Origin: an uncultured Bacteroidales bacterium
GTDB taxonomy: Bacteria; Bacteroidota; Bacteroidia; Bacteroidales; CAIXZF01
Direction: 5' to 3'
Assembly: GCA_964605655.1 (NCBI GenBank)
Contig: CAZSDK010000020.1
Location: forward strand, 6,974 to 70,973
Length of the DNA stretch: 64,000 nt
Position 1 is the first letter of the stretch, and each line of letters opens with the position of its first letter. Of the stretch, positions 44,207-61,161 are shown in pieces. The translations under genes and the position numbers were made by a program. The notes below the pieces were generated by a model. The model had not been told where the DNA came from. It saw only the letters and a list, made by a program, of their open reading frames with translations, and searched no databases.

Positions 44207-46144
44207 CTATTTATAATTTCTTTGTTTCACCTCGATAAATTCATAATCGAGGGATTCTTTATGGAGAAGGTGTTGGTCGCTGCCCTGGTATTCCCAGGCT
44301 GCGACATATTTGAAATCCTCGTCGTTTCTGAGGGCTTCACCGTCAGGGGTCTGGTACTCCTCCCTGAAATGTCCGCCGCAGCTTTCTTTACGATTGAGGG
44401 CATCCATGGCTATCAGCTCGCCCAGTTCCAGGAAGTCGGCCACCCTGCATGCCTTCTCCAGCTCGGTGTTCAGGCTGTCAGGCGTGCCGGGGATAAACAC
44501 ATCTTTCCAGAATTCCTCCCTGAGTTCCCTGATCAGGGTGATGCCTTTCTTCAGTCCTGTTTCATTTCTTCCCATACCAACATATTCCCACATGATCTTG
44601 CCAAGTTTCTTGTGGAAATGGTCGACAGAGTTCTTTCCTTTCACATTCATGAGCTTCTGGATGTGTTCGGCCACGTCTTTTTCCGTCTGTTCGAACTCGG
44701 GCAGGTCGGTTTTCATCCGGGGCACTTTGATCTGGTCGGAGAGATAATTTTGGATCGTGAAGGGGATGACAAAAAATCCGTCGGCCAGTCCCTGCATCAG
44801 GGCGGAAGCGCCGAGCCTGTTGGCACCGTGATCGCTGAAGTTGGCTTCTCCCAGCACAAACAGGCCAGGGATGGTCGTCTGCAGCTCATAGTCCACCCAG
44901 ATGCCGCCCATAGTGTAATGCACGGCAGGGTAAATCATCATCGGGGTCTCATAAGGGTTCTCGTCGACGATCTTCTCATACATCTGGAAAAGGTTGCCAT
45001 AACGTTCCTCGATCACATTCTTTCCTAAACGGGCAATGGATTCCGAGAAGTCGAGGAAGACGGCCAGACCGGTTTCCCCAACGCCAAAGCCGGCGTCGCA
45101 TCTTTCTTTGGCGGCCCTGGAGGCCACATCCCTGGGGACGAGGTTCCCAAAGGCAGGATAACGGCGTTCCAGGTAGTAATCACGATCTTCTTCTTTTATC
45201 TGGTTCGGTCTGAGCTTACCATGACGGAGAGCCTCGGCGTCGGCCAGGTTTTTGGGGACCCAGATACGGCCGTCGTTGCGGAGGCTCTCGCTCATCAGGG
45301 TGAGTTTAGACTGGTAGTCACCATGTACAGGGATGCAGGTGGGATGGATCTGGGTGAAACAGGGATTTCCGAAGAAAGCACCTTTTTTATAGGCCTGCCA
45401 GATCGCACTTGCGTTCGATCCCATCGCGTTGGTGGACAGGAAAAACACATTCCCGTAGCCTCCGGTGGCCAATACCACGGCATGGGCAAAATGCCGCTCC
45501 AGCTTCCCGGTGACCAGGTTACGGGTGATGATTCCCCTGGCCTTACCGTCGACCACCACCAGGTCCTGCATCTCCTGGCGATAGTACAGTTTTACCGTAC
45601 CCTTCTTGATCTGGCGGCTCAGTGATCCGTAGGCACCCAGCAGCAACTGCTGTCCTGTCTGCCCCCTGGCATAAAAGGTACGGGAGACCTGAGCCCCTCC
45701 GAAGGAACGGTTATCGAGTAATCCGCCGTAGTCACGGGCAAAAGGCACACCCTGGGCCACACAATGGTCGATGATCAGGTTGCTGACCTCGGCCAGACGG
45801 TAGACATTGGCTTCCCTGGCCCGGTAATCGCCTCCTTTTATGGTGTCATAAAAGAGACGGTAAATGCTGTCCCCGTCATTCTGGTAGTTCTTGGCTGCAT
45901 TGATCCCCCCCTGGGCAGCGATGCTGTGTGCCCGCCGCGGACTGTCCTGATAGCAGAAGTTCTTGACATTGAATCCAAGCTCACCCAGACTGGCTGCCGC
46001 TCCTGCACCGGCAAGACCGGTGCCGACAACGATAATATCCAGCTTTCTTTTGTTAGATGGGTTGACCAGGTTCTGGTGGGATTTAAAATACGACCACTTC
46101 TGTTCCAGTGGCCCTGCAGGAATCTTCGGATCTAAACGCGACAT
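44207..46144 (-). CDS. sdhA: Succinate dehydrogenase/fumarate reductase flavoprotein subunit
   Basis: 645 aa. FAD dinucleotide fold [18 protein letters not shown], the covalent-FAD His region [14 protein letters not shown], and [10 protein letters not shown]. Confidence 0.9.
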
Positions 46145-46172
46145 AGATTTGGTATAAAGACTTTAGTACCCT

Positions 46173-46180
46173 CAAAAATA
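46173..46180 (-). promoter_or_regulatory. -7 promoter box (minus-strand tatttttg) directly upstream of sdhA
   Basis: Plus-strand caaaaata, 29 nt upstream of the sdhA ATG. Confidence 0.45.
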
Positions 46181-46305
46181 AATATTAATCATGTTGACCG
46201 GATGGGTTTCCATCCAGAAATTGCATGAGGACAGGCTTAAATAGAATAGGTATAAATAATGGTCTGGGCAGCGAGGTGAAATCAGCAGGATGAAAACGGT
46301 TAGTC

Positions 46306-46349
46306 GGGATGCGGGATGCGGGATGCGGATGCGGGATGCGGGATGCGGG
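46306..46349 (+). repeat. Heptad tandem array (GGGATGC)n, 6 units; canonical G-quadruplex-forming pattern
   Basis: gggatgc gggatgc gggatgc ggatgc gggatgc gggatgc ggg. These are G3 tracts separated by 4-nt loops. Confidence 0.9.
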
Positions 46350-46509
46350 ATAGTTCCAGTGGGCAGTCAGCAGTCAGCAGTCGGTGGGCAGTGAAGTCCA
46401 TGTCGTTATATTTCAAGGTTATACATTATCAATTATCAACTATTAATTATCAACTTTTACCTCGTAGAGGTTATCTACCTGTAGCAAAGAGTCAGCCGGT
46501 TGAATATTT

Positions 46510-46559
46510 CCCCTCCCCGTTATCATCCCAATCGAAGAAACAACCTTTGTGGGGAGGGG
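46510..46559. other. Hairpin with a 9-bp C/G stem (cccctcccc ... ggggagggg) and a 32-nt loop
   Basis: Read directly. It lies inside the 1.2-kb non-coding stretch. Confidence 0.7.
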
Positions 46560-46652
46560 CGAGAGGAGGGTAAGACTGGAATTCTAATATTCACTAAATC
46601 AGTGAGATGAATTCTGTTAGATGAAAGCTGGCAGTATAAGCAGTTGGCAACC

Positions 46653-46676
46653 GGGAAACGGGATTCGGGATACGGG
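46653..46676 (+). repeat. Second heptad G-tract array (gggaaac gggattc gggatac ggg); G-quadruplex motif
   Basis: Four G3 tracts with three 4-nt loops, period 7. Confidence 0.85.
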
Positions 46677-46708
46677 ATGGCAATTCATTCTTGCATTCTC
46701 CCTTCTTG

Positions 46709-46761
46709 CCATCTTGCCTTATCGAACATCCCTCTGCGACCCGGCGTCTCTGCGGTGAAAA
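46709..46761. repeat. Conserved core of the dispersed intergenic element (copy B)
   Basis: It matches 16202..16245 (see that feature). Its 3' part, ctctgcggtgaaaa (46748-46761), is the inverted complement of tttttaccgcagag at 46810-46823. Confidence 0.85.
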
Positions 46762-47055
46762 GGACGATAATTAGTGGTTCCTCAACATTCATGGGTTTCA
46801 TAGAAGTATTTTTTTACCGCAGAGAAACAGAGACGCAGAGTTTTTCTGCATCTGTCTTGATAAAAATATCGTTTCTCAGTCTTCTTTTCACCACTTGAGG
46901 CACTTAAGGTGTTGTGAATGTGAATCTTATTGTGGGAGTCAATCACTAACAGCTGCTTTACAATCATTGCACTGACCACTAACCTGGCAACCTTTGAGGG
47001 AGCTCTCATTAAGGGATTGAGGCTCCGGCGGTGAAAAGCGCACAAGGCATCCCCG

Positions 47056-47208
47056 GGGATGCTTGGTGGCCAGTACCACCCAACGGTTGTCCTTTTGGAG
47101 TTTTATCTCGAAGTCTGTCTTGAACTCCTCTATTTTCAGCTGGTTTTGTAGGTTATATCTTATCCTAAGTGCACGGGTTATTGCATATAAATTACGAATT
47201 ATATGCAA
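47056..47208 (-). pseudogene. Possible 5' remnant of an IS transposase gene (DUF772/InsH-N-like N-terminus)
   Basis: The 89-aa ORF begins ...IRYNLQNQLKIEEFKTDFEIKLQKDNRWVVLATKHP. This resembles, from memory only, the N-terminal pattern (..NRWV.LA..IPW) of a Bacteroidetes IS5-like transposase family. The rest of the ORF is unlike a transposase and there is no DDE domain. Confidence 0.25.
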
Positions 47209-47367
47209 GTATTTTTAAATATACTCGCTATATGTTATTAATAATCAGATTTATATGAATCTTTACTGTGCCCTATTTAGACTATTTATTAATTACTGTA
47301 ATCAAAAAGTTTTAGCTGATAAAATTTACTATTGTTATAAATTTGTTTATTAAAGTCAGACCTTCTA

Positions 47368-48948
47368 ATGACTCTTATCAAATTGCAAATGAGTTATCCT
47401 GAGGCAAATACCAGTAAACATATAAAGAGTATTATATTTATATTTGTATTTTCATCTTTGTTAATGATAGCATCTGGTCAAAATAGTCCCGATGCCAAGA
47501 GAGATTATGTCTGGGTGTTTGGGAATAATTATTATGCTCCTTGCAATACTGAATATAAACTTGATTTCAATAATTATCCTGATATTGTTTCCGGATTCAC
47601 ACACACTATTCATCTTGATCTGAATAATGCTTCTATTTGCGATACGAATGGTTCTTTACTTTTTTTTACCAATGGACAGGAGGTCGTCGACAGGTTAGGG
47701 AATATCATGCCTAATGGTGATTCACTTACCTATACAGACTTTTATCAGTATCTTAATCAGTTCAATTTAGGGCCCTGGTGGCCACAGTCAGTACTTATTC
47801 TTCCAAATCCGGTCTTTAATAACATATACTATATCTTACATCTTCGTATTGAGTGGCTTAATGGAATCACCGGGGAAGGGCCTGTGGCAACCGGACTTAT
47901 GATGAGTACTGTTGATATGACCCTTCATGACGGTTTTGGAGATGTCATCAGCAAAAACCAGTTACTCATCGATGACACCTTATTTAATGGAATGAACGCC
48001 ACAAGACATGGAAATGGCAGGGACTGGTGGATTATTGCCCCAACCAGAACAACAGGGATTTGTTATAAGTTACTTTTGGATCCCGAAGGAGTACACATCA
48101 TTGAATCTCCACCAAACAATAATTTCAATAATACAGTCTACACGCCATATACTGTGATGTCGCCGGATGGGAGCAAGTTCATTTATACCGGACATGGTTC
48201 AAATCATCCTGTTTACTGCTATAGTTTCGACCGTTGTCTTGGTACGATGAATGAAATTGAAAATTTCACTGTTCCGGATGATTATTTTGGATATAGCGTA
48301 TCCGTCTCTTCAAATTCTCAATATCTATATTTAATAAGTGAAATGCATATTTATCAATTTGATCTTACGGTTTCTCCCATTGCAAGCAGTAAAATACTTG
48401 TAGCTGTTTATGATGGATATAGCCCTACCTATAATCCTCCTGCTTTTAGTTTTTCACAATTAGGCCCGGATAATAAAATTTATATAGGTGCTGGCAATTC
48501 CACTTTTATTCATGTTATTGAGAATCCTGATTTAGAAGGAATGAACTGTAATGTTGTACAACGAGCTCTCACTATGCCAGGTTGCAGTCTTTACGGCTCT
48601 ATGCCAAAACTGCCTAACTTTCGGCTTGGGAGTTTGGTAGGATCCGACTGTGATAGTTTAATTACTAGTGCAATAGAAACCTCAAAAAGTTCCGCAGGTA
48701 AAATAACCTTCGCCCCCAATCCGGCAAACGACTATATCCGCTTTGATTTCAGTGAATTAACCACGAATCATCCTATGCAGTTTTTCATTAGTGACGACCT
48801 TGGAAGAGAGATGGATATGTTGAATATTGCACCATTCCAGGGTTTTTTCAACTACGATGTTAGAAAGTTAGCTGATGGATTATACATTGGTTTATTGAAA
48901 AACCAGAATGGAATGTTAGGAAAGGTCAAGTTCATAGTGAATAAATAG
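47368..48948 (+). CDS. Low-GC T9SS cargo protein of unknown function (beta-propeller-like) with a type A C-terminal sorting domain
   Basis: 526 aa with a signal-anchor. Repeated blade-like motifs (ICDTNGSLLFFTNG, HGNGRDWWII, SPDGSKFIYTG, LGPDNKIYIG). C-terminal tail FAPNPANDYIRFDF...DGLYIGLLKNQNGMLGKVKFIVNK. Sampled 60-nt lines give about 23-32% GC, against about 47% in neighbouring genes. Confidence 0.75.
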   Translation: MTLIKLQMSYPEANTSKHIKSIIFIFVFSSLLMIASGQNSPDAKRDYVWVFGNNYYAPCNTEYKLDFNNYPDIVSGFTHTIHLDLNNASICDTNGSLLFFTNGQEVVDRLGNIMPNGDSLTYTDFYQYLNQFNLGPWWPQSVLILPNPVFNNIYYILHLRIEWLNGITGEGPVATGLMMSTVDMTLHDGFGDVISKNQLLIDDTLFNGMNATRHGNGRDWWIIAPTRTTGICYKLLLDPEGVHIIESPPNNNFNNTVYTPYTVMSPDGSKFIYTGHGSNHPVYCYSFDRCLGTMNEIENFTVPDDYFGYSVSVSSNSQYLYLISEMHIYQFDLTVSPIASSKILVAVYDGYSPTYNPPAFSFSQLGPDNKIYIGAGNSTFIHVIENPDLEGMNCNVVQRALTMPGCSLYGSMPKLPNFRLGSLVGSDCDSLITSAIETSKSSAGKITFAPNPANDYIRFDFSELTTNHPMQFFISDDLGREMDMLNIAPFQGFFNYDVRKLADGLYIGLLKNQNGMLGKVKFIVNK

Positions 48949-49039
48949 GGTTTGGCGAAAAGACAATAATATCGCTTGAGATCGTAAATTCTGCAATCTG
49001 ATTTCTGACTTCGGGCATTCGTATTGTTGGATGCCGGCC

Positions 49040-49558
49040 TTAGCTGTCAGGTTTTTCATTTCGCAGGGAATCCATGACCGCGTGTATGATCTCTGCCACA
49101 TGCCGGTCGGAATCCTTTTCAAAATGGAGCAGCTGATAGACCCTGAAACTTTTTAACTTCATGATATTCCTGGTAATGTCGAGGACATATTTATGCAGGA
49201 ACGGCAGGATGCCACCTGCCTGGTGGTATTGCTGGGAATGAGTCAGTTCGTGGATCAGCCATTTGATGTCTACTTCCCTGCCCAGGTCGACAGGCTTCGG
49301 GAAAAATACCTGTCGTCCAAAGGTTATCGCCAGGCGCTTTCCGGTCTTTTTCACCGCCGAATACCTGACCTTTCCAAGGTCGAAACTAAAGTACGGTTGT
49401 AAGGCTTTTTGGAGGGGCACTGGCAGTCTGTGCCACCTTCCGCCGGACTTCACCCACAGCAAAATGTAATAAGCGAATAAAAAAGGGAGAATCAGCAGGT
49501 CCAAAATTACAGACAGTACTGCCATTACGCATTTCTTTAAGAACTTAACGAATCCCAT
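49040..49558 (-). CDS. Small membrane-anchored DUF4157 (zincin HExxH) domain protein
   Basis: 172 aa with an N-terminal hydrophobic region. LPVPLQKALQPYFSFDLGKVRYS...ITFGRQVFFPKPVDLGREVDIKWLIHELTHSQQY matches the DUF4157 pattern (...D.S.VR...A.T.G..I.F......LL.HELTHV.Q) as I recall it. Confidence 0.65.
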   Translation of the reverse strand: MGFVKFLKKCVMAVLSVILDLLILPFLFAYYILLWVKSGGRWHRLPVPLQKALQPYFSFDLGKVRYSAVKKTGKRLAITFGRQVFFPKPVDLGREVDIKWLIHELTHSQQYHQAGGILPFLHKYVLDITRNIMKLKSFRVYQLLHFEKDSDRHVAEIIHAVMDSLRNEKPDS

Positions 49559-49631
49559 CTTTGGCCGGTTTGCAACAACAAGTTATTGTAACTCAATCGG
49601 TATTTACAGAACGAAGATAATGAAATTTCCT

Positions 49632-50954
49632 TTAAAAGGAAAGTGCCGACCGGTAAACCCTGACCGCTCTCTTCCTGGCCTCTTCATGATCTACAACAGG
49701 TGCCGGATCTTCATCAGCAGCCTCCTGGATCCAATGAGTTATGTACTTCTTATCAGGATCAAACTTCCTGGCCTGCTCGTGAGGGTTGAACACCCTGAAA
49801 TACGGGGCTGCATCGCATCCGCACCCTGCTGCCCACTGCCAGTTGCCGTTGTTCGACGAAAGCTCATAATCGAACAGCTTCCGGGCAAAATAGGCTTCTC
49901 CCCACCTCCAGTCAATGAGCAGATGTTTGGTCAGAAAGCTGGCTGTCACCATACGCACCCTGTTGTGCATGAACCCCGTCTCATTCAGCTCTCTCATGCC
50001 GGCATCCACCAGCGGGTAACCGGTCCTGCCTTCACACCAGGCATGAAACATGCCTTCGTCGTTGATCCAGGGAATACGGTCATACCTGGTTTTGAAGGAG
50101 TGCTTTTCCACGTCGGGAAAATGAAAGAGGATCATCATGAAGAACTCCCTCCAGATAAGCTCCTGCAGCCAGGTCTCATTCAGTTCCCTTCCCAGCCGCA
50201 CCATCTCCCTGATGCTCACCGTACCAAAACGTAAAGGCACACCCATCCGGCTGGTGTTTTGTGAAGGCAGGTTGCGGACCAGGTGATAAGAAGTGAGGAC
50301 GGACACTTCAGGACGTTCAGGGGGGATCTCAATGGGAAAACTCTCAAAACCAATTTCCTCAAGGGAAGGCATGGGTTCTTCCTCCATCTGGTGAAGCCTC
50401 TCAAGCAGAGATTCACCCGGATAGGTCTTCAGACTGGTGGTTTCAAGCTTTTGTCTCCATTTTTTTGAATAGGGAGTAAAGACGGTGTAAGGAGACCCGT
50501 CTTCTTTCACCACATCCGACTTTTCAAAGATCACTTGGTCGCCAAATGATAAAAAAGATATTCCTTTTGAATGAAGGAAATCTTTGATTTTCAAGTCTCT
50601 GTCAACAGCATACGGTTCATAGTCGTGGTTGGTATAAACCGCTTTGATATGAAACCGTTCAGTGATCTTTCTGAATGCTTCCAAAGGATCATCTTTCATG
50701 ACGAGGAGCGTGGAGCCACTGGCTGCAAATGCTCTGTGCAGTTTTTCAAGGACCTGATGGATAAAGACCATCCTCCGGTCTTTTTTATACTGAAGTTTTC
50801 CGAGGATGCAGGTGTCGAAAATGAAGACCGGCAACACCGGTAACCCGCTTTTTAATGCCTCGTAAAGCCCGTGGTTGTCATGGAGCCTCAAGTCTCTGCG
50901 AAACCAGAAAAGGACCAGTTCGACCGTGTCAGATGCGGGTTTACCGGATTCCAT
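49632..50954 (-). CDS. Deoxyribodipyrimidine photolyase / cryptochrome-family flavoprotein
   Basis: 440 aa. N-terminal LFWFRRDLRLHDNHGL. FAD-binding domain motifs WREFF, TGYPLVDAGMRELNETGFMHNRVRMVTASFL and NNGNWQWAAG. Confidence 0.9.
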   Translation of the reverse strand: MESGKPASDTVELVLFWFRRDLRLHDNHGLYEALKSGLPVLPVFIFDTCILGKLQYKKDRRMVFIHQVLEKLHRAFAASGSTLLVMKDDPLEAFRKITERFHIKAVYTNHDYEPYAVDRDLKIKDFLHSKGISFLSFGDQVIFEKSDVVKEDGSPYTVFTPYSKKWRQKLETTSLKTYPGESLLERLHQMEEEPMPSLEEIGFESFPIEIPPERPEVSVLTSYHLVRNLPSQNTSRMGVPLRFGTVSIREMVRLGRELNETWLQELIWREFFMMILFHFPDVEKHSFKTRYDRIPWINDEGMFHAWCEGRTGYPLVDAGMRELNETGFMHNRVRMVTASFLTKHLLIDWRWGEAYFARKLFDYELSSNNGNWQWAAGCGCDAAPYFRVFNPHEQARKFDPDKKYITHWIQEAADEDPAPVVDHEEARKRAVRVYRSALSF

Positions 50955-52808: not shown

Positions 52809-54020
52809 GTGAGTAAGGAAGGAAGAAATAATTTGATTGATAGAGTGAGGTTTATTAGATGGATAGGGGTTAGCCTGGTTGTGCTGATCACGTCAGGTGT
52901 TTATGCACAGACCACTTCTATCACGCAGATGCTGAACTACCCGGAAGGCACGGTCCTGGTGGCTGCCCATCGCGGTGATATACTGAATTACCCTGAAAAC
53001 AGCATCAGTGCCATTGAATCCTGTATCCGCCGAGGAATAGACATTGTTGAGATTGATGTACAGATGACGAAGGACCATCAACTGATCCTCATGCATGATG
53101 TCACCATCAACCGCACCACCAATGGTAAGGGTAAAGTGGGCAAGCACACTTTGAAAAAGCTGAAGATGCATAAGCTGCGTGGACCTGGCGGAAGGATCTG
53201 GGACGAGCGGGTGCCGACCCTGGAGGAGGCCATCCGGACGGCAAGGGGAAGGATTATTCTGAACCTGGATAAGAGCAGCCGTTTCCTGGATCAGATCCTG
53301 GTGATGCTGGACACCATGGACGCCAGGCAGACCGTGATCTTTAAAGGAGTGTTCGGGTACGAATTCCTGAGAAGGAAGATTGAGGAGAATCCTCAGGGTC
53401 CCTTGATGATGCCCATCATGTATTATAAAAAGAGGGCAGATCTTGACACTTTCCTCACCAAAGGACAGCCCAGGCTGGCTGAACTGATCCTTTCCAACGA
53501 TACCAACAATATGGTCACCCCGGATGGGCAGGCGCTCTTTCGCAGGAACAACTGCAGGATCTGGTACAATGCTTTTTACAAGAGCATGTCGCTGGGGTTC
53601 TCTGAAAACGAGAATGCCCTGATGACCTGGGACAGCCTGATCGCTCACGGGGCCTTTATCATTCAGACCGACTATCCTTTCGAGCTGATGCAGCACCTGA
53701 TCAACATTGGAAGAAGGCAGCCGCCGGCGGGATGGCAGAATGTGAACCTGGCTTCCCTGCCTTTCAAGATTCCGGTGATGCTGGCCGATACCACTCAGGA
53801 CACCATTGCCCAGGTGGTCCCGGTCGTTATTAAGAAAGCCACACCTCCTCCGGTGAGCAAATCCCATCAGAAAAAGGTTTATCACAAGATCCGCCAGGGG
53901 GATACCTTGTCTCATCTGGCAGTGAAATATAAAACGACGGTTTCGGACATCTGTAAACTGAATAAAAGTCTGAAACCCACCACTACCCTGAAGCTGGGCC
54001 GGAAGATCAGGGTAAAATAA
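52809..54020 (+). CDS. Secreted glycerophosphodiester phosphodiesterase (GDPD) with a C-terminal LysM domain
   Basis: GTG start and signal-anchor. GDPD motifs VAAHRGD..YPENSISAIESCIRRGIDIVEIDVQMTKDHQLILMHDVTINRTTNG. C-terminal LysM YHKIRQGDTLSHLAVKYKTTVSDICKLNKSLKPTTTLKLGRKIRV. Confidence 0.8.
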   Translation: MSKEGRNNLIDRVRFIRWIGVSLVVLITSGVYAQTTSITQMLNYPEGTVLVAAHRGDILNYPENSISAIESCIRRGIDIVEIDVQMTKDHQLILMHDVTINRTTNGKGKVGKHTLKKLKMHKLRGPGGRIWDERVPTLEEAIRTARGRIILNLDKSSRFLDQILVMLDTMDARQTVIFKGVFGYEFLRRKIEENPQGPLMMPIMYYKKRADLDTFLTKGQPRLAELILSNDTNNMVTPDGQALFRRNNCRIWYNAFYKSMSLGFSENENALMTWDSLIAHGAFIIQTDYPFELMQHLINIGRRQPPAGWQNVNLASLPFKIPVMLADTTQDTIAQVVPVVIKKATPPPVSKSHQKKVYHKIRQGDTLSHLAVKYKTTVSDICKLNKSLKPTTTLKLGRKIRVK

Positions 54021-54023
54021 GCC

Positions 54024-55127
54024 TTAGAATTTCTTTCTGAAACCGAGGTGGGTATATACGGGACGTTCCCCACCGTCAGCAGGTCTGCTGATGATGCCCT
54101 GGTTGACGACGTACATGCAGGAACTGCCTCCCTGGTCGCAGGCCATGGCTGACCAGGCACCAAAACCAAGCAGGATCTGACCGCATTCCTCCATGGTCAG
54201 TCCCAGGCTGTGTCCGGGTTTCCTTCCGTCCACCACCATCAGGTAAGCTTTCCATCCCGATTCATCGATACCCACGATGGTCCTCGGGTAGGAGTTGTTC
54301 TTTGTCCCGTCCCTGGGATCAATCTGTACCTTGCCTTCCTGAAGCAGGTCGAACCTTCCCCAGATAGCCTGGAACATGTTCTCTGCCGGGATGGTGATCA
54401 CCTCCCTGTCAGGAGAATAAAAGGCCCTGCCTTTCTGATCGAAATACACGAAGGGTCTTTTGTCGGTGTCTTTCATCAGCAAAGGAACTCCGTTCACCAT
54501 ATAGTTACCGGTCCATTGTCCCAGTGGCGCCTTGAGTCCGGGTGTCTCCCCGGCTTCCCCGTTAACAGCCACTTCAGCCTTAAAACGACTGCCAAAAGCG
54601 GAGGTCTTCTCTTTTACAAGAATATGAGTATCCAGAACGGCTTCATACTGAGTAAGGTCAATGGTAGCAACATAAGCCACTGCCTCGGGAGAGGAAAACC
54701 TGAGCCTGATGACCTGGCATCCTGAAGTGGCGTACATCACCTCTTTTTTTACGGCCGTATCTCTGGTCTTGATGGTCAGCCGCTGCACCTCCTTTGGCAG
54801 GACAGCCGATGGGCCGGTCTCTTGGGTGGTCGTCATCACAGGCGGACTCATCCTCAGTTCGGCTTCCTGCTCCTTATGTTTCCATTGGTTATCGAACAAT
54901 ACAGCACCGGCGATGATCATAGAACACAGCATGGCAGCGGAAAAGAAGATGACTCTTGCTTTGTGGTCCAGTCCGATGACTTTTCTGCCCAGGATAAGGA
55001 GAAAGAGGATCCAGAAGGTTCCGGAAATCAGCAACCACAACAACAGTTGCAGCGCCAGGGGCATCTGCATCAGCCTCCATAGCAGGGCGTCGAGGTTGTC
55101 GAGAAAAATATTGACCTGGTCTCCCAT
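54024..55127 (-). CDS. Membrane-anchored phosphodiester glycosidase family protein (NAGPA/DUF2233)
   Basis: Two N-terminal TM helices. The C-terminal domain PRTIVGIDESGWKAYLMVVDGRKPGHSLGLTMEECGQILLGFGAWSAMACDQGGSSCMYV is typical of the family. Confidence 0.75.
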   Translation of the reverse strand: MGDQVNIFLDNLDALLWRLMQMPLALQLLLWLLISGTFWILFLLILGRKVIGLDHKARVIFFSAAMLCSMIIAGAVLFDNQWKHKEQEAELRMSPPVMTTTQETGPSAVLPKEVQRLTIKTRDTAVKKEVMYATSGCQVIRLRFSSPEAVAYVATIDLTQYEAVLDTHILVKEKTSAFGSRFKAEVAVNGEAGETPGLKAPLGQWTGNYMVNGVPLLMKDTDKRPFVYFDQKGRAFYSPDREVITIPAENMFQAIWGRFDLLQEGKVQIDPRDGTKNNSYPRTIVGIDESGWKAYLMVVDGRKPGHSLGLTMEECGQILLGFGAWSAMACDQGGSSCMYVVNQGIISRPADGGERPVYTHLGFRKKF

Positions 55128-56125
55128 CAGCGAATCCTTATTTTTTGTTTCGGACGGATGATGTCGGTGGGTCTCATCCTGTTCAATGACAAGAGTTTAG
55201 ATAAAGGAATACTGTGCCTGGCAGCGATACTGCTCAGGGTATCTCCTTTGACTACCGTGTGGTACCTGGGCTTCTCCTTCTTCCCGGGAACAGGTGCTGC
55301 CGGCTTCTCTGATCCGGAAAGTGTGTCTGAGTTCAGTGCAAGCGTGTCGGTCCCTGCCTCAAGGATCCCCCGGTTCAGACAGGGGCAAAAGATCTGTTTT
55401 TGAACCTCCGTGATGAGAAACTCGTTAAAAGGCTTGTAATTCAGTATCTTCTCCCTCACATGCGGATATCCAGCCCCGTTACCATCGGTACACTGTACCC
55501 AGTATTCCAGTCCCTGCCGGTTGTTCAGCCCGCAGAACTGCATCAGGGTGAGGGTGGACAGCAGTCCCGACTGATGCCATCCGTTCCAGCAATGGATATA
55601 TACGGGTCCTTTCGAAGGATCATCTATCCTGGCTTTGATGTCGGAAAAGAACACCTTCAGTGAACTGTCAATGAGTTCTGGCTCAGAGGAATATATGAAC
55701 CCGGATTCCTTCAGGGAATCCAGGATGTTATCAGGGTATCTTTCTTTAAAATTCTTGGAATACAGGTAAATCCCTTTTGTAAACCCTGCTTTCCGCAGAT
55801 TGGTGATTCCGTTCAGGGGCAATGGGTTTCTGAAATAGGATCTTTTTTGAGAGGGTCTCAGGTAAAGGTTGTCACCTCCTCCCCTGTAAAGAACATCATG
55901 GAGTACGACCCTGAAGTTTCTTACACCCGATAAACTGTCGAACCCAAGTCCATGGTTATCAACAAGTAGCGTTGTGGCAGAATCCAGTCCAAAACGGTCA
56001 TGCTTACTGCATAAACTGTCGGGAAGGTTGCTGTTTGCCCTGATTTCAGTATGTAAACAAAAAAAACTGGAGCAAAGAAGGAGCAGTGTTTTAAAAAATA
56101 GGTCAGGTAAGGTCCGGGCTCTCAT
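55127..56125 (-). CDS. Secreted PTP-fold (tyrosine/dual-specificity phosphatase-like) protein with a C-X5-Q P-loop variant and a C-terminal LysM domain
   Basis: Signal peptide. NFRVVLHDVLYRGG ... GPVYIHCWNGWHQSG follows the layout of the Y_phosphatase2/3 families, but Gln occupies the P-loop Arg position. LysM YHTVVKGDTLSSIAARHSIPLSKLLSLNRMRPTDIIRPKQKIRI. It overlaps both neighbours by 1 nt and 23 nt. Confidence 0.65.
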   Translation of the reverse strand: MRARTLPDLFFKTLLLLCSSFFCLHTEIRANSNLPDSLCSKHDRFGLDSATTLLVDNHGLGFDSLSGVRNFRVVLHDVLYRGGGDNLYLRPSQKRSYFRNPLPLNGITNLRKAGFTKGIYLYSKNFKERYPDNILDSLKESGFIYSSEPELIDSSLKVFFSDIKARIDDPSKGPVYIHCWNGWHQSGLLSTLTLMQFCGLNNRQGLEYWVQCTDGNGAGYPHVREKILNYKPFNEFLITEVQKQIFCPCLNRGILEAGTDTLALNSDTLSGSEKPAAPVPGKKEKPRYHTVVKGDTLSSIAARHSIPLSKLLSLNRMRPTDIIRPKQKIRIR

Positions 56126-58565
56126 TTTTGCGATGTTTTCTTAAACGCCTTATAATCAGCACGATACCTGTAATAAGTACTACTAATCCGACCAACGCGG
56201 GAATCCCTGCCCTGAAAATCAGTTCACGGGGAAGGAGATCAAATGTCGTCGTACGGGATACCAGTTTCACGGACCAGTCCAGGGGATTTTTTTTGTTATT
56301 CCATGATTCATATTTGAGAACTCCCTTTTCTGAACTCACCAGGAAGTGGTTTTTCACATTTAGCAGGGCATCAGGAATGTTGACGTACATGCTGTCGATC
56401 CACTGGTCATCATCATCAATAAGAACGAAGGCCCTGGATTGACGGAAAATGTTGTCCATTTCTGATTGGAGCAATAAACCGGAAAAGTTCCTGTTCACTC
56501 TTCTCCAGGCAGTAGAGTCATTACAAATGACCAATGACTGCCCGGGTTTCAGGGATGAGTCAGGAAATGCTATGGACCAGTGGCTGTTATCTTCATACAG
56601 TCTGGTTCCCCTGAGCTTCACCGGAGATTCACCCTGGTTCTTGATTTCCAGCCAGTGCATGTCCCTTTTTACCTGCATCGTACAGTAGAACCTGTTCATG
56701 ATGAGCTGGTTCCTTTTTTCCGACATGTCCTTATGAACATAAAGGGCATTCAGCCTGAGGTTGTCGCTGATGGTAATGGTTTTTACAGGCACTGAATCTC
56801 CGTCTTCCATCCATTTTTTGAACTTGTACAGATGATTTTCACCGGTAGCTTCTACCTTCAATGGAAGCTTGGAGAAGAATATTCCGCTGATATTCTGGAA
56901 CCTGAGGTCCGATTCATTGATCCTGAGGGAGTGGAGGGTTTTAATGTTGGTGGCGATCAGGATCCTGGAAGTATCGGCCAGGTTAAACTGGAGTTGAAGC
57001 TGCTTGTAAGCTGCAGCCGGCATCTTTCTGTAAAAATGTTCCAGCCAGCCAACATTCCTGTTCCATGACTTCACCGATTCATGCCAGATGTTATTCCTCC
57101 GCCTCACATGGCGGGGAATTTCAGGTTCTATTTTCTTTTTAAAATACTGCACCTTTCTGAGCAGGCTGTCGGACCGGAGGTAGGTGGACAGCAGAAGGCA
57201 ATACTGGTTGATGAACCTTGTTTTCATCTCTTGGTTGGCGATGAGCGAGCGCAGCAATATGGTGGCAAAATAGGGATTGTACCATTCTGTCTGTTCCGGG
57301 CTCAGACGTTCTGCCAGGAAGTTTTTCTTAATGAAGACACTGCCTGCAGAAGCATCCCCGTCATAAAAGATCCAGCGGTAACGGTTATCGAGATTGGAGG
57401 CTTTCCAGAATTTCAGATTGCCTCTTGAATCGATGTTGGCATGAAAGATCTGCAATATGGAGAAATTGAGGTAATTATCAACATCGATCTTTTTGTTTAT
57501 CTCAGCCGGAAATTCGGGTGACTGGTTTTGGTGGATGGCATATTGTACAACCTTGTCGTAATGTTTGTTGTAAACCCCGCGCTCCTGCAGGATGATGGTA
57601 GAATCAGGATCGGCATGATGGTTATAGATCAGGAAGTTTTTATTCACTTTCTCCCTGAAATTATAGATTCCGAAATATAGTCCGTTCACATACAGTATCC
57701 CCTGTTGGTAAGCCATTTGGTCCAGGCCGAGGTCCTGGGCGATGGAACTGACACAAACATCCTTGAAACGGGTCCCGTATTGGTCACCACCAGAAGTTCT
57801 GATGACCAGGCTTTTGAATTTATTGAAAGGTTTGTTTTCGAAAAATTTGTATTCCAGGCAGTCGTCACCATAATTCTCATGGGCGATGAGCTGGAGAGAT
57901 TTCTCCGGAAGGGCCAGGGTGAACCCTCCGTGAGGTTTGACGCCATAAGCTCCGTACTCCACTAACTTCCCCTGGTAGAAGAACTCTGCGTAGCAGTCGA
58001 TCTCCTTTTTCTTCAAAGCATTGCCATGGTTAATGATCATATTATCCTCGGTAATTTCCCTGGACCCTTCGGTGATCCCGTCGGGCGGGAAAAAAGCTTC
58101 CGGGTTCACGCTGATACAGAGGATGGGAAGCTGGTGGCGGTTTTTAACCACGAAAGAGGCGCAATAGATGGTGTCTGTCTTTCTGCCTCTCTGACTGATC
58201 CGGCATTGCAGGTTCACCATGCTGTCGATCCGGATGGGTACATTGTATTTAAGGGGGCTCCCGGATGTCAGATGATTCTTTTGATAGAACAGCTGCATCC
58301 CCGGCGGTAGGGTAAATCTCAGATAAAAGGCCGAGTCATAAATACCAGGCTGATGAGAAAGCTTAACCTGGTATCTGTCCAGGCTCTGCAAAGGCCGGTA
58401 GAACAGAACAGGTTTCCTGTGGACCTTCTTCTTTTTCTTTTTCTTTACCTGATTTTCCTTCTTTTTCCCTTCTGAGGGTGCCTGGCCCGGGACCTCTGAA
58501 ACAACCATGAGAAAAGCCAGAAAAAGTATGGCAGTTAAAAAGGTATGTGCAATTCTTCTTGCCAA
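56103..58565 (-). CDS. CotH-family kinase-like protein with a lamin-tail domain (LTD) and a C-terminal TM anchor
   Basis: 820 aa. Signal-anchor plus a Lys-rich stretch. CotH-like core (VDNYLNFSILQIFHANIDSRGNLKFWKA...YRWIFYDGDAS). LTD-like segment (HWLEIKNQGESPVKLRGTRLYEDNSHWSIAFPDSSLKPGQSLVICND). C-terminal TM helix IPALVGLVVLITGIVLII. Confidence 0.75.
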   Translation of the reverse strand: MARRIAHTFLTAILFLAFLMVVSEVPGQAPSEGKKKENQVKKKKKKKVHRKPVLFYRPLQSLDRYQVKLSHQPGIYDSAFYLRFTLPPGMQLFYQKNHLTSGSPLKYNVPIRIDSMVNLQCRISQRGRKTDTIYCASFVVKNRHQLPILCISVNPEAFFPPDGITEGSREITEDNMIINHGNALKKKEIDCYAEFFYQGKLVEYGAYGVKPHGGFTLALPEKSLQLIAHENYGDDCLEYKFFENKPFNKFKSLVIRTSGGDQYGTRFKDVCVSSIAQDLGLDQMAYQQGILYVNGLYFGIYNFREKVNKNFLIYNHHADPDSTIILQERGVYNKHYDKVVQYAIHQNQSPEFPAEINKKIDVDNYLNFSILQIFHANIDSRGNLKFWKASNLDNRYRWIFYDGDASAGSVFIKKNFLAERLSPEQTEWYNPYFATILLRSLIANQEMKTRFINQYCLLLSTYLRSDSLLRKVQYFKKKIEPEIPRHVRRRNNIWHESVKSWNRNVGWLEHFYRKMPAAAYKQLQLQFNLADTSRILIATNIKTLHSLRINESDLRFQNISGIFFSKLPLKVEATGENHLYKFKKWMEDGDSVPVKTITISDNLRLNALYVHKDMSEKRNQLIMNRFYCTMQVKRDMHWLEIKNQGESPVKLRGTRLYEDNSHWSIAFPDSSLKPGQSLVICNDSTAWRRVNRNFSGLLLQSEMDNIFRQSRAFVLIDDDDQWIDSMYVNIPDALLNVKNHFLVSSEKGVLKYESWNNKKNPLDWSVKLVSRTTTFDLLPRELIFRAGIPALVGLVVLITGIVLIIRRLRKHRKNESPDLT

Positions 58566-58653
58566 ATCTGTTCAGATTGGTTATTATCTAACAAAATCAG
58601 TGTAGCAGGTTCTTTTTCTGATGGTTATCAGTTAAGCAAAAATAGGTTAAATC

Positions 58654-59874
58654 TTAATGCAAAGAGTGGTTCTTTTCATATTCGTAAATTACTTTACCAA
58701 GTTCTCTTAAAAATGGCAGTCCAACCTGATCCAGTTCGTAGACACCGTCTCCCACGATGCCGTCTTTATTGACATATATTACACAGCTGAGAAAAAACTC
58801 CACCCGGTTGCAGGCATCGTGAAAATAGGCTGCATCCACCAGAAAGCCATAGGCCTGGCCCACTATATTCATGATTTTAAGGTCAGGACGGATGATGGCT
58901 GCCGTGTCACTGCCATAATACAGATAATTGGTCATGGCTTCATAATACGTGCTGTCCGAACGGATGGAGGCCAGATCGGACTGTGAGGGCAGGCAAGCCA
59001 GTACCTCCTTCAAATATTGGCGGTCCTGTTTGGTGAGACGCAGCTTGGTGTTGAAGTTCTCAGGATACATGATCTTTTGAAGGAGATCATGGGTCACATC
59101 GAGCGGCAGGCAATTCTTTTCTGAAAAATCTTTAGGATGGTGAAGTAGTTTCCCCCCTTCCATACAGGCGTCTCCGACTTTCATGTTTTTCAATGGGGGA
59201 CGGTAGGTTGTTGCATTGAAGCTGGGAGGCTGGTAATGGAGCTTTTTCCCTGCATTGCTGAAGAACGTAAAAGAGTTCGTATACCTGTTTTCTTCGGTGT
59301 TACACCTGTTGAAGCGGATCAGGACTCTGGCATCGCGGTATCCCAGTTCTCTGAATCTCTGGTTAATAGTTTGCTGTCCAAGGAACTCGTATAAGCGGTT
59401 ATACGCATCGTTGTTGCTCACGATCAAGGCTTTTTTCATATAGCTGTCTAGGGTAGGGACGGAGTCCCTGGCCGTTGGATCAATGGTCACCGCTTCCTGG
59501 CAGGAATGCCCGGCACCGATTTTAAGACGGGTATCTTTGGTGATTCCTTTTTTGTTCAGCGAGTTCAGTTTTTCCAGAGTAAATAAGGCAAGAGGGAGTT
59601 TAACCGTACTCGCGGGATTAAAATACTCCCCAGGACGATAACGGAAAGTATGGGTTACCAGGCTGGTCGAGGTATCGTTGTGGTGGACGATCCTGGTATA
59701 CAGGATCTGAAGCCGGAATTCATCGGCATGCCCGGCTACTTCTGAAAGGAAGGGAGAGTCAGAGAGAATTTCCCGGAGAAGCGATGAGTCAGCACCGGAA
59801 TAGAGGTGCTGGGTTCTCGCTGTAAGGCCCAGTAAGAATCCAAGGATCAACAGTATGGACCATCTCCGGCACAT
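58654..59874 (-). CDS. Class A beta-lactamase-fold serine hydrolase (secreted)
   Basis: S-x-x-K motif (PASTVKLPLA) and S-x-N motif (IVSNNDAYNRL). I place the start at Met 59874 (MCRRWSILLILGFLLGL, a signal peptide). The longer track ORF (to 60072) would overlap the upstream gene. Confidence 0.7.
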   Translation of the reverse strand: MCRRWSILLILGFLLGLTARTQHLYSGADSSLLREILSDSPFLSEVAGHADEFRLQILYTRIVHHNDTSTSLVTHTFRYRPGEYFNPASTVKLPLALFTLEKLNSLNKKGITKDTRLKIGAGHSCQEAVTIDPTARDSVPTLDSYMKKALIVSNNDAYNRLYEFLGQQTINQRFRELGYRDARVLIRFNRCNTEENRYTNSFTFFSNAGKKLHYQPPSFNATTYRPPLKNMKVGDACMEGGKLLHHPKDFSEKNCLPLDVTHDLLQKIMYPENFNTKLRLTKQDRQYLKEVLACLPSQSDLASIRSDSTYYEAMTNYLYYGSDTAAIIRPDLKIMNIVGQAYGFLVDAAYFHDACNRVEFFLSCVIYVNKDGIVGDGVYELDQVGLPFLRELGKVIYEYEKNHSLH

Positions 59875-59885
59875 GGAAAGTGACC

Positions 59886-61091
59886 CTAGGGTTTTCTGGT
59901 GATTACCATCTGGTTCTGGCCTTTGGTCATCCAGTGATACCCCAGTGAAAAGGGCAGGGATCCGCGGTAATGGCTGGAATCGGCATAGGCGGCTGCCAGG
60001 TCTTTTTGGTAGAAATTCCTGCTGAAATCTTCCACAGGCAGGAGATAAACTCCATACAGTTCCACCTTCCATTCTTTCTCTGTGAAATACCTGAATGGTA
60101 TTCCTGTGTCGTCCTGAACAAGGAATCGGGATTTCTCAAGGACCAGCTTCCTCATTTTTGTGAACGAACGAAAGGAAAGAAGGTACGACCCTGCTTTAAT
60201 GAAGGTATTGACCTGAGGCAGTTGCTCAACATACCTGAAAATACCCGGGTTCAGGGTTTGTCCTTTTTCCGAAAGGTCACAGGAAAAATACCTCAGTATC
60301 TGTATTTTGGAAGTGGCCTGGTTTCTCATGGTGATCTGAACCCCCTTAACCGGGGTGTTCCCTTTCCATGGCTTCCATTCGGCAAGGGTCACCTGACCTG
60401 AGGAGTCCAGGCTCACCTGCTGCACGGCAATCACTTCATGACCCGTCCGTGCCACCGACCAGAGCAACATCGGGAGCATTCCTGAAAGCTGCGCCTTGTA
60501 CCTGGTGTCAAGATGCATGTTCTTGGTCATGAAATAGCTTTTGGAATAGATGTCCCTGAAGGCATAATCCACTGCTGAGAGATAACCATTGATCTCTGCC
60601 GGCTTCATCAGGGAAAAGTCCGGTATGGAACCCACCTTTTCGAGGGCCATCAGATGGTATACCGAAGCATTGGGATACATCCAGGCAGCATGAAGAAAAT
60701 CCCCTCCTGACAAAGGATAGAGGCAGGGGAGGGTATCATTTTGTTGGTTCCTGATCATGTTACTGTCGTTCCACTTCCTTATGGGCAGAAGCCTGGAGGT
60801 CTCTATGGCTGAGACTTTTCGGCCCACTTCAGAACAATAGTTCCTCAGAAAGACCTTGTCCATGTATCCCGTCAGGTGGTTATCAGAGGAGTCCATCCCT
60901 GAAAGAACTCTCGCGTAATCATTACTGACACTGTCGATGGGCAAGGTCCCCTTTGTGCTTAAACCCATGGAATCAGTCTCGTTTGTGACTACGGACTGTG
61001 TCGACTCCATGGGACGTTTGAAATCAGAACAAGAAATAATGAGACCCCAGAGAATAAAAAGGAATAGTGGCAGAGAATTTCGTTTAGACAT
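59886..61091 (-). CDS. Hypothetical lipoprotein (first gene of the CotH cluster)
   Basis: A start at Met 61091 gives a lipobox (MSKRNSLPLFLFILWGLIISCS). I recognise no family. It ends 11 nt before the next gene. Confidence 0.6.
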   Translation of the reverse strand: MSKRNSLPLFLFILWGLIISCSDFKRPMESTQSVVTNETDSMGLSTKGTLPIDSVSNDYARVLSGMDSSDNHLTGYMDKVFLRNYCSEVGRKVSAIETSRLLPIRKWNDSNMIRNQQNDTLPCLYPLSGGDFLHAAWMYPNASVYHLMALEKVGSIPDFSLMKPAEINGYLSAVDYAFRDIYSKSYFMTKNMHLDTRYKAQLSGMLPMLLWSVARTGHEVIAVQQVSLDSSGQVTLAEWKPWKGNTPVKGVQITMRNQATSKIQILRYFSCDLSEKGQTLNPGIFRYVEQLPQVNTFIKAGSYLLSFRSFTKMRKLVLEKSRFLVQDDTGIPFRYFTEKEWKVELYGVYLLPVEDFSRNFYQKDLAAAYADSSHYRGSLPFSLGYHWMTKGQNQMVITRKP

Positions 61092-61153
61092 AGTATTGTT
61101 TCTTTTCGTAAAGGAATCGGATCGATGAAGCCGGTCCATCATCCAAAGTGATG

Positions 61154-61161
61154 CAAAAATA
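61154..61161 (-). promoter_or_regulatory. -7 promoter box (minus-strand tatttttg) upstream of the CotH-cluster operon
   Basis: Plus-strand caaaaata, about 63 nt upstream of ATG 61091. Confidence 0.4.

Follow-up and report, generated by a model that had tools for sequence, protein, structure and literature searches.

CotH kinases are widespread outside the spore-forming bacteria, and we know of no function for them there. The starch and glycogen phosphorylation cycle, which acts on an insoluble glycan, pairs the GWD and PWD kinases with the phosphatases SEX4, LSF2 or laforin, and in the Golgi lumen the xylose kinase FAM20B is paired with the phosphatase PXYLP1. The phosphatase TpbA of Pseudomonas aeruginosa is periplasmic, has a canonical CX5R loop, and has a protein substrate, the diguanylate cyclase TpbB. 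In CotH of Bacillus subtilis, D228 and D251 are the catalytic and metal-binding aspartates (PMC7821199). CotH, VTC and DUF4956 are accessory genes at Gram-positive Pel loci, and a role of CotH outside spores was suggested by the authors (10.1101/768473). In the mannose-6-phosphate pathway, an N-acetylglucosamine (GlcNAc)-1-phosphotransferase acts first and is followed by the uncovering enzyme NAGPA (PMC13474241). Here a cluster of six genes is described, at positions 52809–61142 of a 64,000-nucleotide stretch of an uncultured Bacteroidales genome (contig CAZSDK010000020.1; the whole stretch is called the window below), in which a CotH protein is encoded together with a protein tyrosine phosphatase (PTP)-like protein, NAGPA, a GDPD, a beta-lactamase-fold hydrolase and a lipoprotein. 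It is put together, as a mosaic, from three modules (A, B and C) that recur elsewhere. The reading that we favor, and hold tentatively, is that of a conserved, peptidoglycan-directed periplasmic system that processes phosphate esters.

The six genes, with the evidence for each (open reading frames (ORFs), Pfam matches, and in one case an AlphaFold2 (AF2) model), are:

52809–54020, plus strand: GDPD-LysM gene, module B (ORF and Pfam)
54024–55127, minus strand: NAGPA gene, module B (ORF and Pfam)
55127–56125, minus strand: PTP-like-LysM gene, module A (ORF, Pfam LysM, AF2 model)
56103–58565, minus strand: CotH gene, module A (ORF and Pfam)
58654–59874, minus strand: beta-lactamase-fold gene, module C (ORF and Pfam)
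59886–61142, minus strand: lipoprotein gene, module C (ORF)

The initial annotation of the window had listed these ORFs and their spacings, and the ORF list confirms all of them: there are gaps of 11 nt and 88 nt, overlaps of 23 nt and 1 nt, and two convergent stops 3 nt apart. The beta-lactamase-fold ORF mechanically reaches 60072, and a start at the Met at 59874 gives both a signal peptide and the 11-nt gap. The GDPD, LysM, NAGPA and CotH calls likewise hold, with Pfam scores above the gathering score, and a signal peptide, lipobox or transmembrane (TM) anchor was recognized on each product by hydropathy and inspection. No equivalog-level NCBIfam name was reached by any of the six proteins.

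The linkage of these families extends far beyond this genome, as scans of loci anchored on the PTP-like domain and on NAGPA both show. When the PTP-anchored loci were grouped by a 70% identity threshold on the PTP-like core, 43 lineages resulted, 19 of them linked to CotH and 24 without it. NAGPA was nearby in 7 of the 19 CotH-linked lineages, GDPD and the lipoprotein in 6 each, and the beta-lactamase-fold gene in 5, while none of the four was near the PTP-like gene in any of the 24 CotH-less lineages. At least one of the four was present in 10/19 lineages with CotH and 0/24 without (Fisher p = 5e-5). Modules A+B, A+C and A+B+C are found together repeatedly, in differing orders. CotH proteins across the linked loci are just 25–54% identical and the gene orders vary, so shared ancestry of a single arrangement does not explain the linkage. 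The full set of six families was found again in three loci (L048, L049 and L108), the last of which has a CotH–PTP-like fusion, NAGPA, GDPD, two lipoprotein paralogues and a beta-lactamase-fold gene. Synteny in a Flavobacteriales clade of 16 loci follows from close kinship, and it was not counted as evidence.

The reciprocal metagenome scan, anchored on NAGPA, covered 65 loci. In 27 of the 29 closest of these GDPD converges on NAGPA, and the contigs of the other two end just past NAGPA; CotH adjoins NAGPA in 7 of the 29. Among the distant NAGPA loci, marine ones included, 9 of 31 have a short CotH (~390–465 aa where complete) that overlaps or abuts NAGPA, and one of these nine has an additional CotH-LTD protein with a type IX secretion system (T9SS) tail. 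The carriers are a scattered minority of the Bacteroidota, mostly from lake or river (freshwater) metagenomes. The Mendota and Erken lake series were the source of many relatives.

In one distant lineage (L132:8763–15017), NAGPA is flanked by a DUF2804 gene on one side and by two CotH genes on the other. The product of one CotH gene carries LTD and Por_Secre_tail and is thus expected to be exported to the cell surface.

The two genes of module A are fused in most relatives. A local jackhmmer search over the CotH loci and 80 PTP-anchored genome loci identified 23 ORFs of 1,030–1,185 aa with the architecture CotH-LTD-TM-loop-TM-PTP-like-LysM (jackhmmer annotation), and in ~10 more loci CotH and the PTP-like protein are encoded by adjacent, separate genes. 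All full-length fusions begin with an ordinary signal peptide, and in every one the linker consists of a strong TM segment, a short basic loop, and a second hydrophobic segment that resembles a signal peptide. Because this hairpin is retained, both catalytic domains are predicted to lie on the same, extracytoplasmic side. The split between the two genes in the window falls exactly at the predicted cytoplasmic loop of the hairpin. Since most relatives fuse them, CotH and the PTP-like-LysM protein are taken to be one functional unit. Among the CotH loci, a LysM protein is encoded directly after CotH in three (L001, L002 and L003), and in two (L005 and L007) both CotH and LysM are in single proteins of 1,069–1,167 aa.

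The accessory genes beside the CotH/PTP-like loci of other lineages are overwhelmingly those of peptidoglycan enzymes or binders. The neighbors in L048 are SH3_3, VanY, M23-LysM and a transglutaminase-like peptidase. In L035 an SLT lytic transglycosylase directly follows the PTP-like gene, and two SPOR-domain proteins are encoded nearby. L030 has an M74 endopeptidase, M23-LysM and NlpC/P60; its contig begins inside the PTP-like gene, so that any CotH gene is out of view. NlpC/P60 and the lipoprotein family are also near the CotH gene of L068. In this last locus (L068:1689–6905) a polyphosphate-polymerase-like VTC and DUF4956 are directly upstream of CotH, followed by a gene of unknown function (262 aa) and then by the PTP-like gene, and in L001 (L001:1–764) VTC and DUF4956 are ~10 kb from CotH. 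Their presence may hint that the phosphoryl donor is not ATP but polyphosphate.

CotH of the window is a protein of 820 aa with a TTG start, a signal peptide, an Ig-like N-terminal region and a basic tail. Its features are:

57024–57941, minus strand: CotH domain, aa 209–514 (Pfam 3.8e-34)
56388–56696, minus strand: LTD-like domain, aa 624–726 (Pfam 1.2e-07, sub-threshold)
56151–56207, minus strand: C-terminal TM segment, aa 787–805 (hydropathy)
58466–58519, minus strand: poly-Lys tract KKKENQVKKKKKKKVHRK, aa 16–33, directly after the signal peptide

The match to CotH (PF08757) covers profile positions 1–317 of 322 and scores 119.1 bits against a cutoff of 23.8; that to LTD is just under threshold (32.5 vs 34.3 bits). 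There are 35 clusters of homologues, the nearest 47% identical. In an alignment whose members go down to 22% identity, D402 and D404 never vary, and K222, N377, D379 and N383 hardly do. The 23-residue spacing of D379 and D402 is, as a distance between residues, the same as that of D228 and D251 in B. subtilis. PDB sequence searches with the protein and with the family profile gave no match even at E = 10. The poly-Lys tract was found in none of the homologous CotH N-termini inspected; it could serve in polyanion binding or be a quirk of the lineage.

The PTP-like protein has an N-terminal signal peptide and the following features:

55340–55999, minus strand: PTP/dual-specificity phosphatase (DSP)-fold domain, aa ~43–262 (AF2 and Foldseek)
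55565–55594, minus strand: P-loop H178-C-W-N-G-W-H-Q-S-G187 (alignment of 26 members)
55133–55261, minus strand: C-terminal LysM after a linker, aa 289–331 (Pfam 1.2e-13)

Pfam found LysM alone in this protein and no phosphatase family, even at E = 10; among its 26 aligned relatives DSPc is matched in 12 and Y_phosphatase2 in 10. The AF2 model of the domain, built on the 26-member alignment, has a pLDDT of 86, and Foldseek matched it with probability 1.0 to Cdc14, TpbA, PRL, PFA-DSP1 and LSF2. As modeled, the protein has a DSP/PTP fold with the Cys at the strand-to-helix P-loop. The motif Y-x-H-C-W-N-G-W-H followed by (Q/A)-S-G is constant across the 26 members, as are R72, R81, C198 and a C-terminal CPC. 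Judged from this alignment, the active site is non-canonical yet strongly conserved, and rich in Trp, Asn and His. The two LysM domains (PF01476) of the cluster reach 43.5 and 51.2 bits, where the cutoff is 20.9.

The family is rare. The N-terminal 258 residues, used as query, gave 83 homologue clusters; there are 75 clusters (50% identity, E <= 1e-30) among 1.84 billion representative proteins, and 385 of 185,579 species genomes encode a relative. A standalone form of ~245 aa with the same loop, without LysM and without CotH nearby (L052–L088), is found in Kapabacteria, Ignavibacteria, Chloroherpeton and Bdellovibrio (L067 is Bdellovibrio sp. HCB-162). No conserved partner was found among the neighbors of these standalone genes.

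The NAGPA protein of module B (367 aa) has two TM helices by hydropathy, at aa 28–46 and 59–77, and the GDPD protein (403 aa) has a signal peptide followed by GDPD, DUF4996 and LysM. Their mapped domains are:

54039–54581, minus strand: NAGPA catalytic domain, aa 183–363 (Pfam NAGPA 8.3e-24)
53883–54017, plus strand: LysM of the GDPD protein, aa 359–403 (Pfam 3.1e-11)

The NAGPA match (PF09992) scores 85.1 bits against a cutoff of 25 and covers profile positions 2–168 of 169. All ten full-length members of the subfamily share an MGDxVNxLxDD N-terminus, two TM segments with a basic loop between them, and CDQGGS. The GDPD protein matches GDPD at 3.4e-23 (PF03009, 83.5 bits against a cutoff of 23.6) and DUF4996 at 4.3e-12, and the HRG, E.D and HD motifs are present. 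Its best PDB match is the putative GDPD 3I10 of Bacteroides thetaiotaomicron (1.4e-45), and other GDPD structures match as well. Most GDPD homologues of ~380 aa or more end in LysM.

The beta-lactamase-fold protein of module C has 406 aa from the Met at 59874 and a signal peptide. Pfam Beta-lactamase2 matches its N-terminal half only (6e-15, profile positions 12–131 of 214), and there are weak PDB matches to 4EWF and to BlaB (2WUQ). STVK (SxxK) and SNN are kept, while KTG is replaced by IVG. The initial assignment to class A beta-lactamases was overstated: the Lys of KTG is lost, and the NCBIfam bla_class_A score is 22.9 against a cutoff of 200, which leaves the protein outside class A. On its sequence the best name is penicillin-binding protein (PBP)/beta-lactamase-fold serine hydrolase.

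The lipoprotein ORF encodes 418 aa, but translation probably begins at M18 (61091), which gives MSKRNSLPLFLFILWGLIISC; the lipobox is ...LWGLIISC, and by inspection its 'SC' is conserved in the family consensus. The conserved motifs are FYPFSGGDFLHA and DDTGIP. All 123 clusters of homologues are unnamed, there was no Pfam or NCBIfam match even at E = 1 across 24 members, and no match in PADLOC. An AF2 model (pLDDT 84) had no significant counterpart among PDB folds (best E 6e-3, TM-score below 0.4). The best of these was a weak resemblance to methyltransferase-like Rossmann folds, and no fold was assigned.

The lipoprotein and beta-lactamase-fold genes are paired in seven loci (L025, L035, L048, L049, L108, L156 and L158). 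Away from CotH they form a trio, lipoprotein, AA_permease and Beta-lactamase2, once beside a glucosaminidase; module C of the window has no permease gene, unlike the usual trio. In two loci (L048:12344–14854 and L049:13440–15950) an APC-type amino-acid permease is fused to the lipoprotein domain. The lipobox segment is kept there as a 13th TM segment, which would leave the lipoprotein domain periplasmic. These fusions and the CotH–PTP-like fusions have the same design, in which a signal peptide is kept as a TM segment. Two unannotated families are defined here: the PTP-like domain with its CX5Q loop, and a lipoprotein that is the partner of AA_permease and Beta-lactamase2.

Because Bacteroidota use promoters other than those of the sigma-70 type, the window was searched for TAnnTTTG boxes; a scan for sigma-70 promoters and intrinsic terminators gave results at chance level only. 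Seven boxes were observed against 3.1 expected, five of them just upstream of gene starts. Two belong to the minus-strand genes of the cluster:

58637–58644, minus strand: TATTTTTG box of the Bacteroidota -7 type, in the 88-nt gap, ~70 nt upstream of the CotH start
61154–61161, minus strand: TATTTTTG box ahead of the lipoprotein gene (possible module C promoter)

The box in the 88-nt gap is a possible internal promoter between module C and modules A+B. A TACCTTTG box upstream of the GDPD gene was spotted by eye. The boxes before the lipoprotein gene and in the gap suggest two minus-strand transcription units, plus the plus-strand GDPD gene, rather than one five-gene operon. The operon proposed by the initial annotation is consistent with the tight spacing, but not as an indivisible unit, given the box in the gap and the occurrence of the three modules separately elsewhere.

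The flanking genes encode a CHU_C T9SS protein, DUF2461, a methyltransferase and a photolyase. These are unrelated housekeeping genes, and the cluster boundaries are therefore drawn as above. The CHU_C and Por_Secre_tail (T9SS tail) genes of the window mark the genome as one of the Bacteroidota. No RNA family was matched by Rfam between 51500 and 62000. PADLOC found no defense system in the cluster, and a reading of the cluster as a defense island was dropped for this reason. An ORF of 340 aa on the minus strand at 52893–53915, antisense to the GDPD gene, was judged by eye to be a shadow ORF, since the strong domain matches sit in the GDPD frame.

Elsewhere in the window, a stretch of ~1.2 kb at 46150–47367 is without an ORF and lies between succinate dehydrogenase genes and a 526-aa ORF with a weak Por_Secre_tail match. 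GC content is low at 46001–50000 (0.40–0.43, vs ~0.48 elsewhere in the window), and an eCIS_core-domain protein of 172 aa is encoded at 49040–49558. At the opposite end of the window there is an ORF of 1,855 aa (4206–9773, minus strand).

All products of the cluster are predicted to face the periplasm, as inner-membrane-anchored proteins or lipoproteins and not as surface or T9SS proteins. The layout of the genes, their families, folds and fusions, the recurrent co-location and the peptidoglycan-enzyme context are observed; from them we infer the localization, the substrate, the direction and every catalytic step of the favored reading, which would run as follows. The target would be phosphate esters carried as substituents by the peptidoglycan of the cell itself, or by a GlcNAc-containing glycan attached to that peptidoglycan. 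CotH, anchored in the inner membrane, would install phosphate and form a sugar phosphomonoester de novo; NAGPA would expose such a phosphomonoester by cleaving a GlcNAc-1-phosphate diester cap, and GDPD would do so by removing a glycerol-phosphate diester cap, the two enzymes leaving or removing phosphomonoesters. The PTP-like domain, tethered to peptidoglycan by LysM, would bind or hydrolyze the phosphorylated sugar, and module C would trim stem peptides and recycle the released amino acids. A more specific form of this reading is a write/uncover/erase cycle, that is, reversible phosphorylation of peptidoglycan or of the bound GlcNAc glycan in the periplasm. In such a cycle the donor for CotH would be something other than ATP, for example polyphosphate exported by a VTC/DUF4956 system; NAGPA and GDPD would 'uncover' or trim caps, as in the mannose-6-phosphate pathway; and the LysM-tethered PTP-fold domain would read or erase the mark. 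In this specific form the cycle seems improbable. The initial annotation had proposed a cycle of envelope phospho-modification and removal, and of its hypotheses this one fits best with the CotH/PTP-like pairing, the anchoring of the proteins, the lack of a conserved SusC/D pair or regulator, and the autolysin-type and SPOR neighbors.

A number of points weigh against a peptidoglycan-directed system of this kind, and several concern its enzymes. The initial call of a PTP is borne out for the fold, by the AF2 model, Foldseek and the Pfam matches within the family, but not for the canonical phosphatase loop. The P-loop is CX5Q and not CX5R, with Gln185 at the Arg position, and the Arg is replaced in all 26 members (by Ala in two); the protein lacks the HCX5R(S/T) signature with its phosphate-binding Arg. 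No invariant Asp that might be the general acid was found within the ~30–40 residues before C179 in the 26-member alignment. Without the canonical Arg, phosphatase activity cannot be assumed, and the domain may bind rather than hydrolyze, or use different chemistry. The NAGPA loop is DQGGS and not DGGGS: Gln stands in place of the first Gly, and the other four residues are retained. The DGGGS loop is reported to recognize GlcNAc-1-P and to be invariant in vertebrate and other bacterial NAGPAs (PMC13474241). Neither VTC nor DUF4956 is encoded in the 64-kb window. The periplasm is not known to contain ATP, so a kinase placed there has no obvious donor, and we know of no phosphorylated peptidoglycan in Gram-negative bacteria. 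The signal peptides, lipobox and TM anchors, and with them the predicted localization, were called from hydropathy and inspection. The linkage itself is facultative – many CotH/PTP-like loci have neither module B nor module C within 10 kb, the NAGPA–GDPD pair and module C are frequently found away from CotH, and 24 lineages have the PTP-like domain on its own – and the relatives that carry the cluster are all metagenome-assembled genomes or metagenome contigs.

The same evidence can be read in other ways. CotH might be a Ser/Thr protein kinase acting on periplasmic or peptidoglycan-associated proteins such as autolysins, with the PTP-like-LysM protein reversing or reading the mark, and with NAGPA, GDPD and module C merely cell-wall neighbors. 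A kinase–phosphatase fusion fits the classic pattern of reversible protein marking, the best Foldseek matches are to protein phosphatases (Cdc14, PRL and the P. aeruginosa DSP TpbA), autolysin genes are frequent among the neighbors, and the only characterized CotH is a protein kinase whose substrates are encoded next door (PMC7821199). Inspection of the translations of the cluster ORFs found no comparable substrate, that is, no Ser/Lys/Arg-rich repeat protein like CotB or CotG; the problem of the ATP donor is the same, and so is the P-loop without Arg. Protein phosphorylation would also leave the repeated, significant linkage of NAGPA and GDPD to CotH unexplained, and we regard it as unlikely, if worth keeping in view.

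The initial annotation had also proposed a secreted toolkit that strips teichoic acid from Gram-positive sacculi. Read as nutrient scavenging, this would mean that imported fragments of foreign Gram-positive walls are dismantled. Against it, such catabolism has no use for a kinase, and CotH lies at the heart of the linkage. GDPD would cut poly-glycerol-phosphate, NAGPA would cut GlcNAc-1-P linkage units, the PTP-like protein would free phosphate, and module C with a permease would harvest peptide and amino acids, with a payoff of phosphorus and nitrogen in oligotrophic water. The three enzymes do belong to hydrolase families suited to teichoic-acid-type linkages, LysM could serve in targeting, an amino-acid permease is part of module C, and most carriers come from lake or river metagenomes; moreover, GlpQ of B. 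subtilis degrades wall teichoic acid under phosphate starvation. However, these loci have no conserved SusC/SusD pair, T9SS-secreted enzyme or regulator, and TonB-dependent receptors are encoded in three of them only (L001, L008 and L158). By hydropathy the enzymes are anchored to the inner membrane and not at the surface, and the SPOR and SLT neighbors suggest a link to the division and wall machinery of the cell itself. Scavenging is thus less favored than the peptidoglycan-directed reading, and seems slightly less likely than protein phosphorylation. That the three modules are independent, share no substrate, and are co-located in an envelope-gene 'hot spot' would agree with the occurrence of each alone in many genomes, with the probably separate promoters of C and A+B, and with GDPD on the opposite strand. 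It agrees poorly with the recurrence of A+B, A+C and A+B+C in rearranged orders around CotH proteins 25–54% identical, with accessory genes in 10/19 CotH-linked and 0/24 CotH-less lineages, and with CotH–NAGPA adjacency that reaches distant marine lineages; of all the accounts considered here it appears the least probable.

No characterized locus of the same composition was found in a literature search, which likewise did not find CotH joined with NAGPA or a phosphodiester glycosidase, with LysM and peptidoglycan, or with Bacteroidota. All the domain families but the lipoprotein are known. Their recurrent assembly with peptidoglycan enzymes is undescribed, as are the fused CotH–PTP-like-LysM architecture, the CX5Q variant of the PTP fold and the NAGPA/GDPD-LysM pair. 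The cluster gives CotH outside spores concrete, conserved partners – the PTP-like-LysM protein, NAGPA, GDPD and peptidoglycan enzymes – and so makes the question of its function testable. A CotH active in the periplasm would need some source of phosphoryl groups other than cytoplasmic ATP. If peptidoglycan is the target, Gram-negative bacteria would have a cell-wall modification of a new class, with possible effects on autolysin control, resistance to lysozyme and phage, and phosphorus cycling in lakes. Should glycan phosphorylation be confirmed, the cluster might turn out to belong to a category of its own. A write/uncover/erase cycle, if true, would be the first glycan-kinase role for CotH, the first periplasmic kinase–phosphatase pair acting on the cell wall, and a bacterial equivalent of the GWD/SEX4 cycle of starch and of the FAM20B/PXYLP1 cycle.

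Compared with the CotH/CotB/CotG system of Bacillus, the locus has the same Pfam family (PF08757), an Asp spacing like that of D228/D251, and a functional partner encoded next door. CotH of Bacillus has ~360 aa and acts in the ATP-containing cytoplasm of the mother cell on Ser-rich coat proteins, whereas the protein described here has 820 aa, a signal peptide, an LTD-like domain and a TM anchor, and its partner is a PTP-like-LysM protein and not a substrate of the CotB/CotG kind. The Pel loci also place a non-spore CotH in the context of a GlcNAc/N-acetylgalactosamine-type glycan, and the CotH, VTC and DUF4956 trio recurs in L068 and L001; PTP-like proteins, LysM, NAGPA and GDPD are not described at Pel loci (10.1101/768473), and VTC and DUF4956 are missing from the window. 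With GlpQ-type GDPDs and 3I10, the GDPD protein shares the catalytic motifs (1.4e-45 to 3I10), and it differs by the addition of DUF4996 and a C-terminal LysM and by its pairing with NAGPA. TpbA resembles the PTP-like protein in its Cys-based DSP fold (Foldseek E ~4e-5) but has no LysM and no kinase partner.

Three other systems are closer in the proposed chemistry. The mannose-6-phosphate pathway shares the PF09992 domain and the removal of a GlcNAc cap to expose a sugar phosphomonoester; in the Pfam annotation of the cluster there is no Stealth-type phosphotransferase, and the NAGPA encoded there differs in its DQGGS loop and its bacterial two-TM anchor. FAM20B and PXYLP1 combine a secretory-pathway kinase related to Fam20/CotH with a phosphatase, and place a transient mark on a glycan outside the cytosol, as module A is proposed to do. 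The pair belongs to eukaryotes, where ATP is brought into the Golgi, and PXYLP1 is a histidine acid phosphatase and not of the PTP fold. In the glucan cycle GWD has an unrelated dikinase fold, works with ATP in the cytosol or plastid, and is paired with phosphatases that have a CX5R loop, compared with CX5Q here. In both the glucan cycle and the cluster, however, a kinase is found with a protein of the DSP fold that carries a carbohydrate-binding module (a CBM there, LysM here), and structures of the glucan phosphatase LSF2 (4KYQ and 4KYR) are among the Foldseek matches of the PTP-like model.

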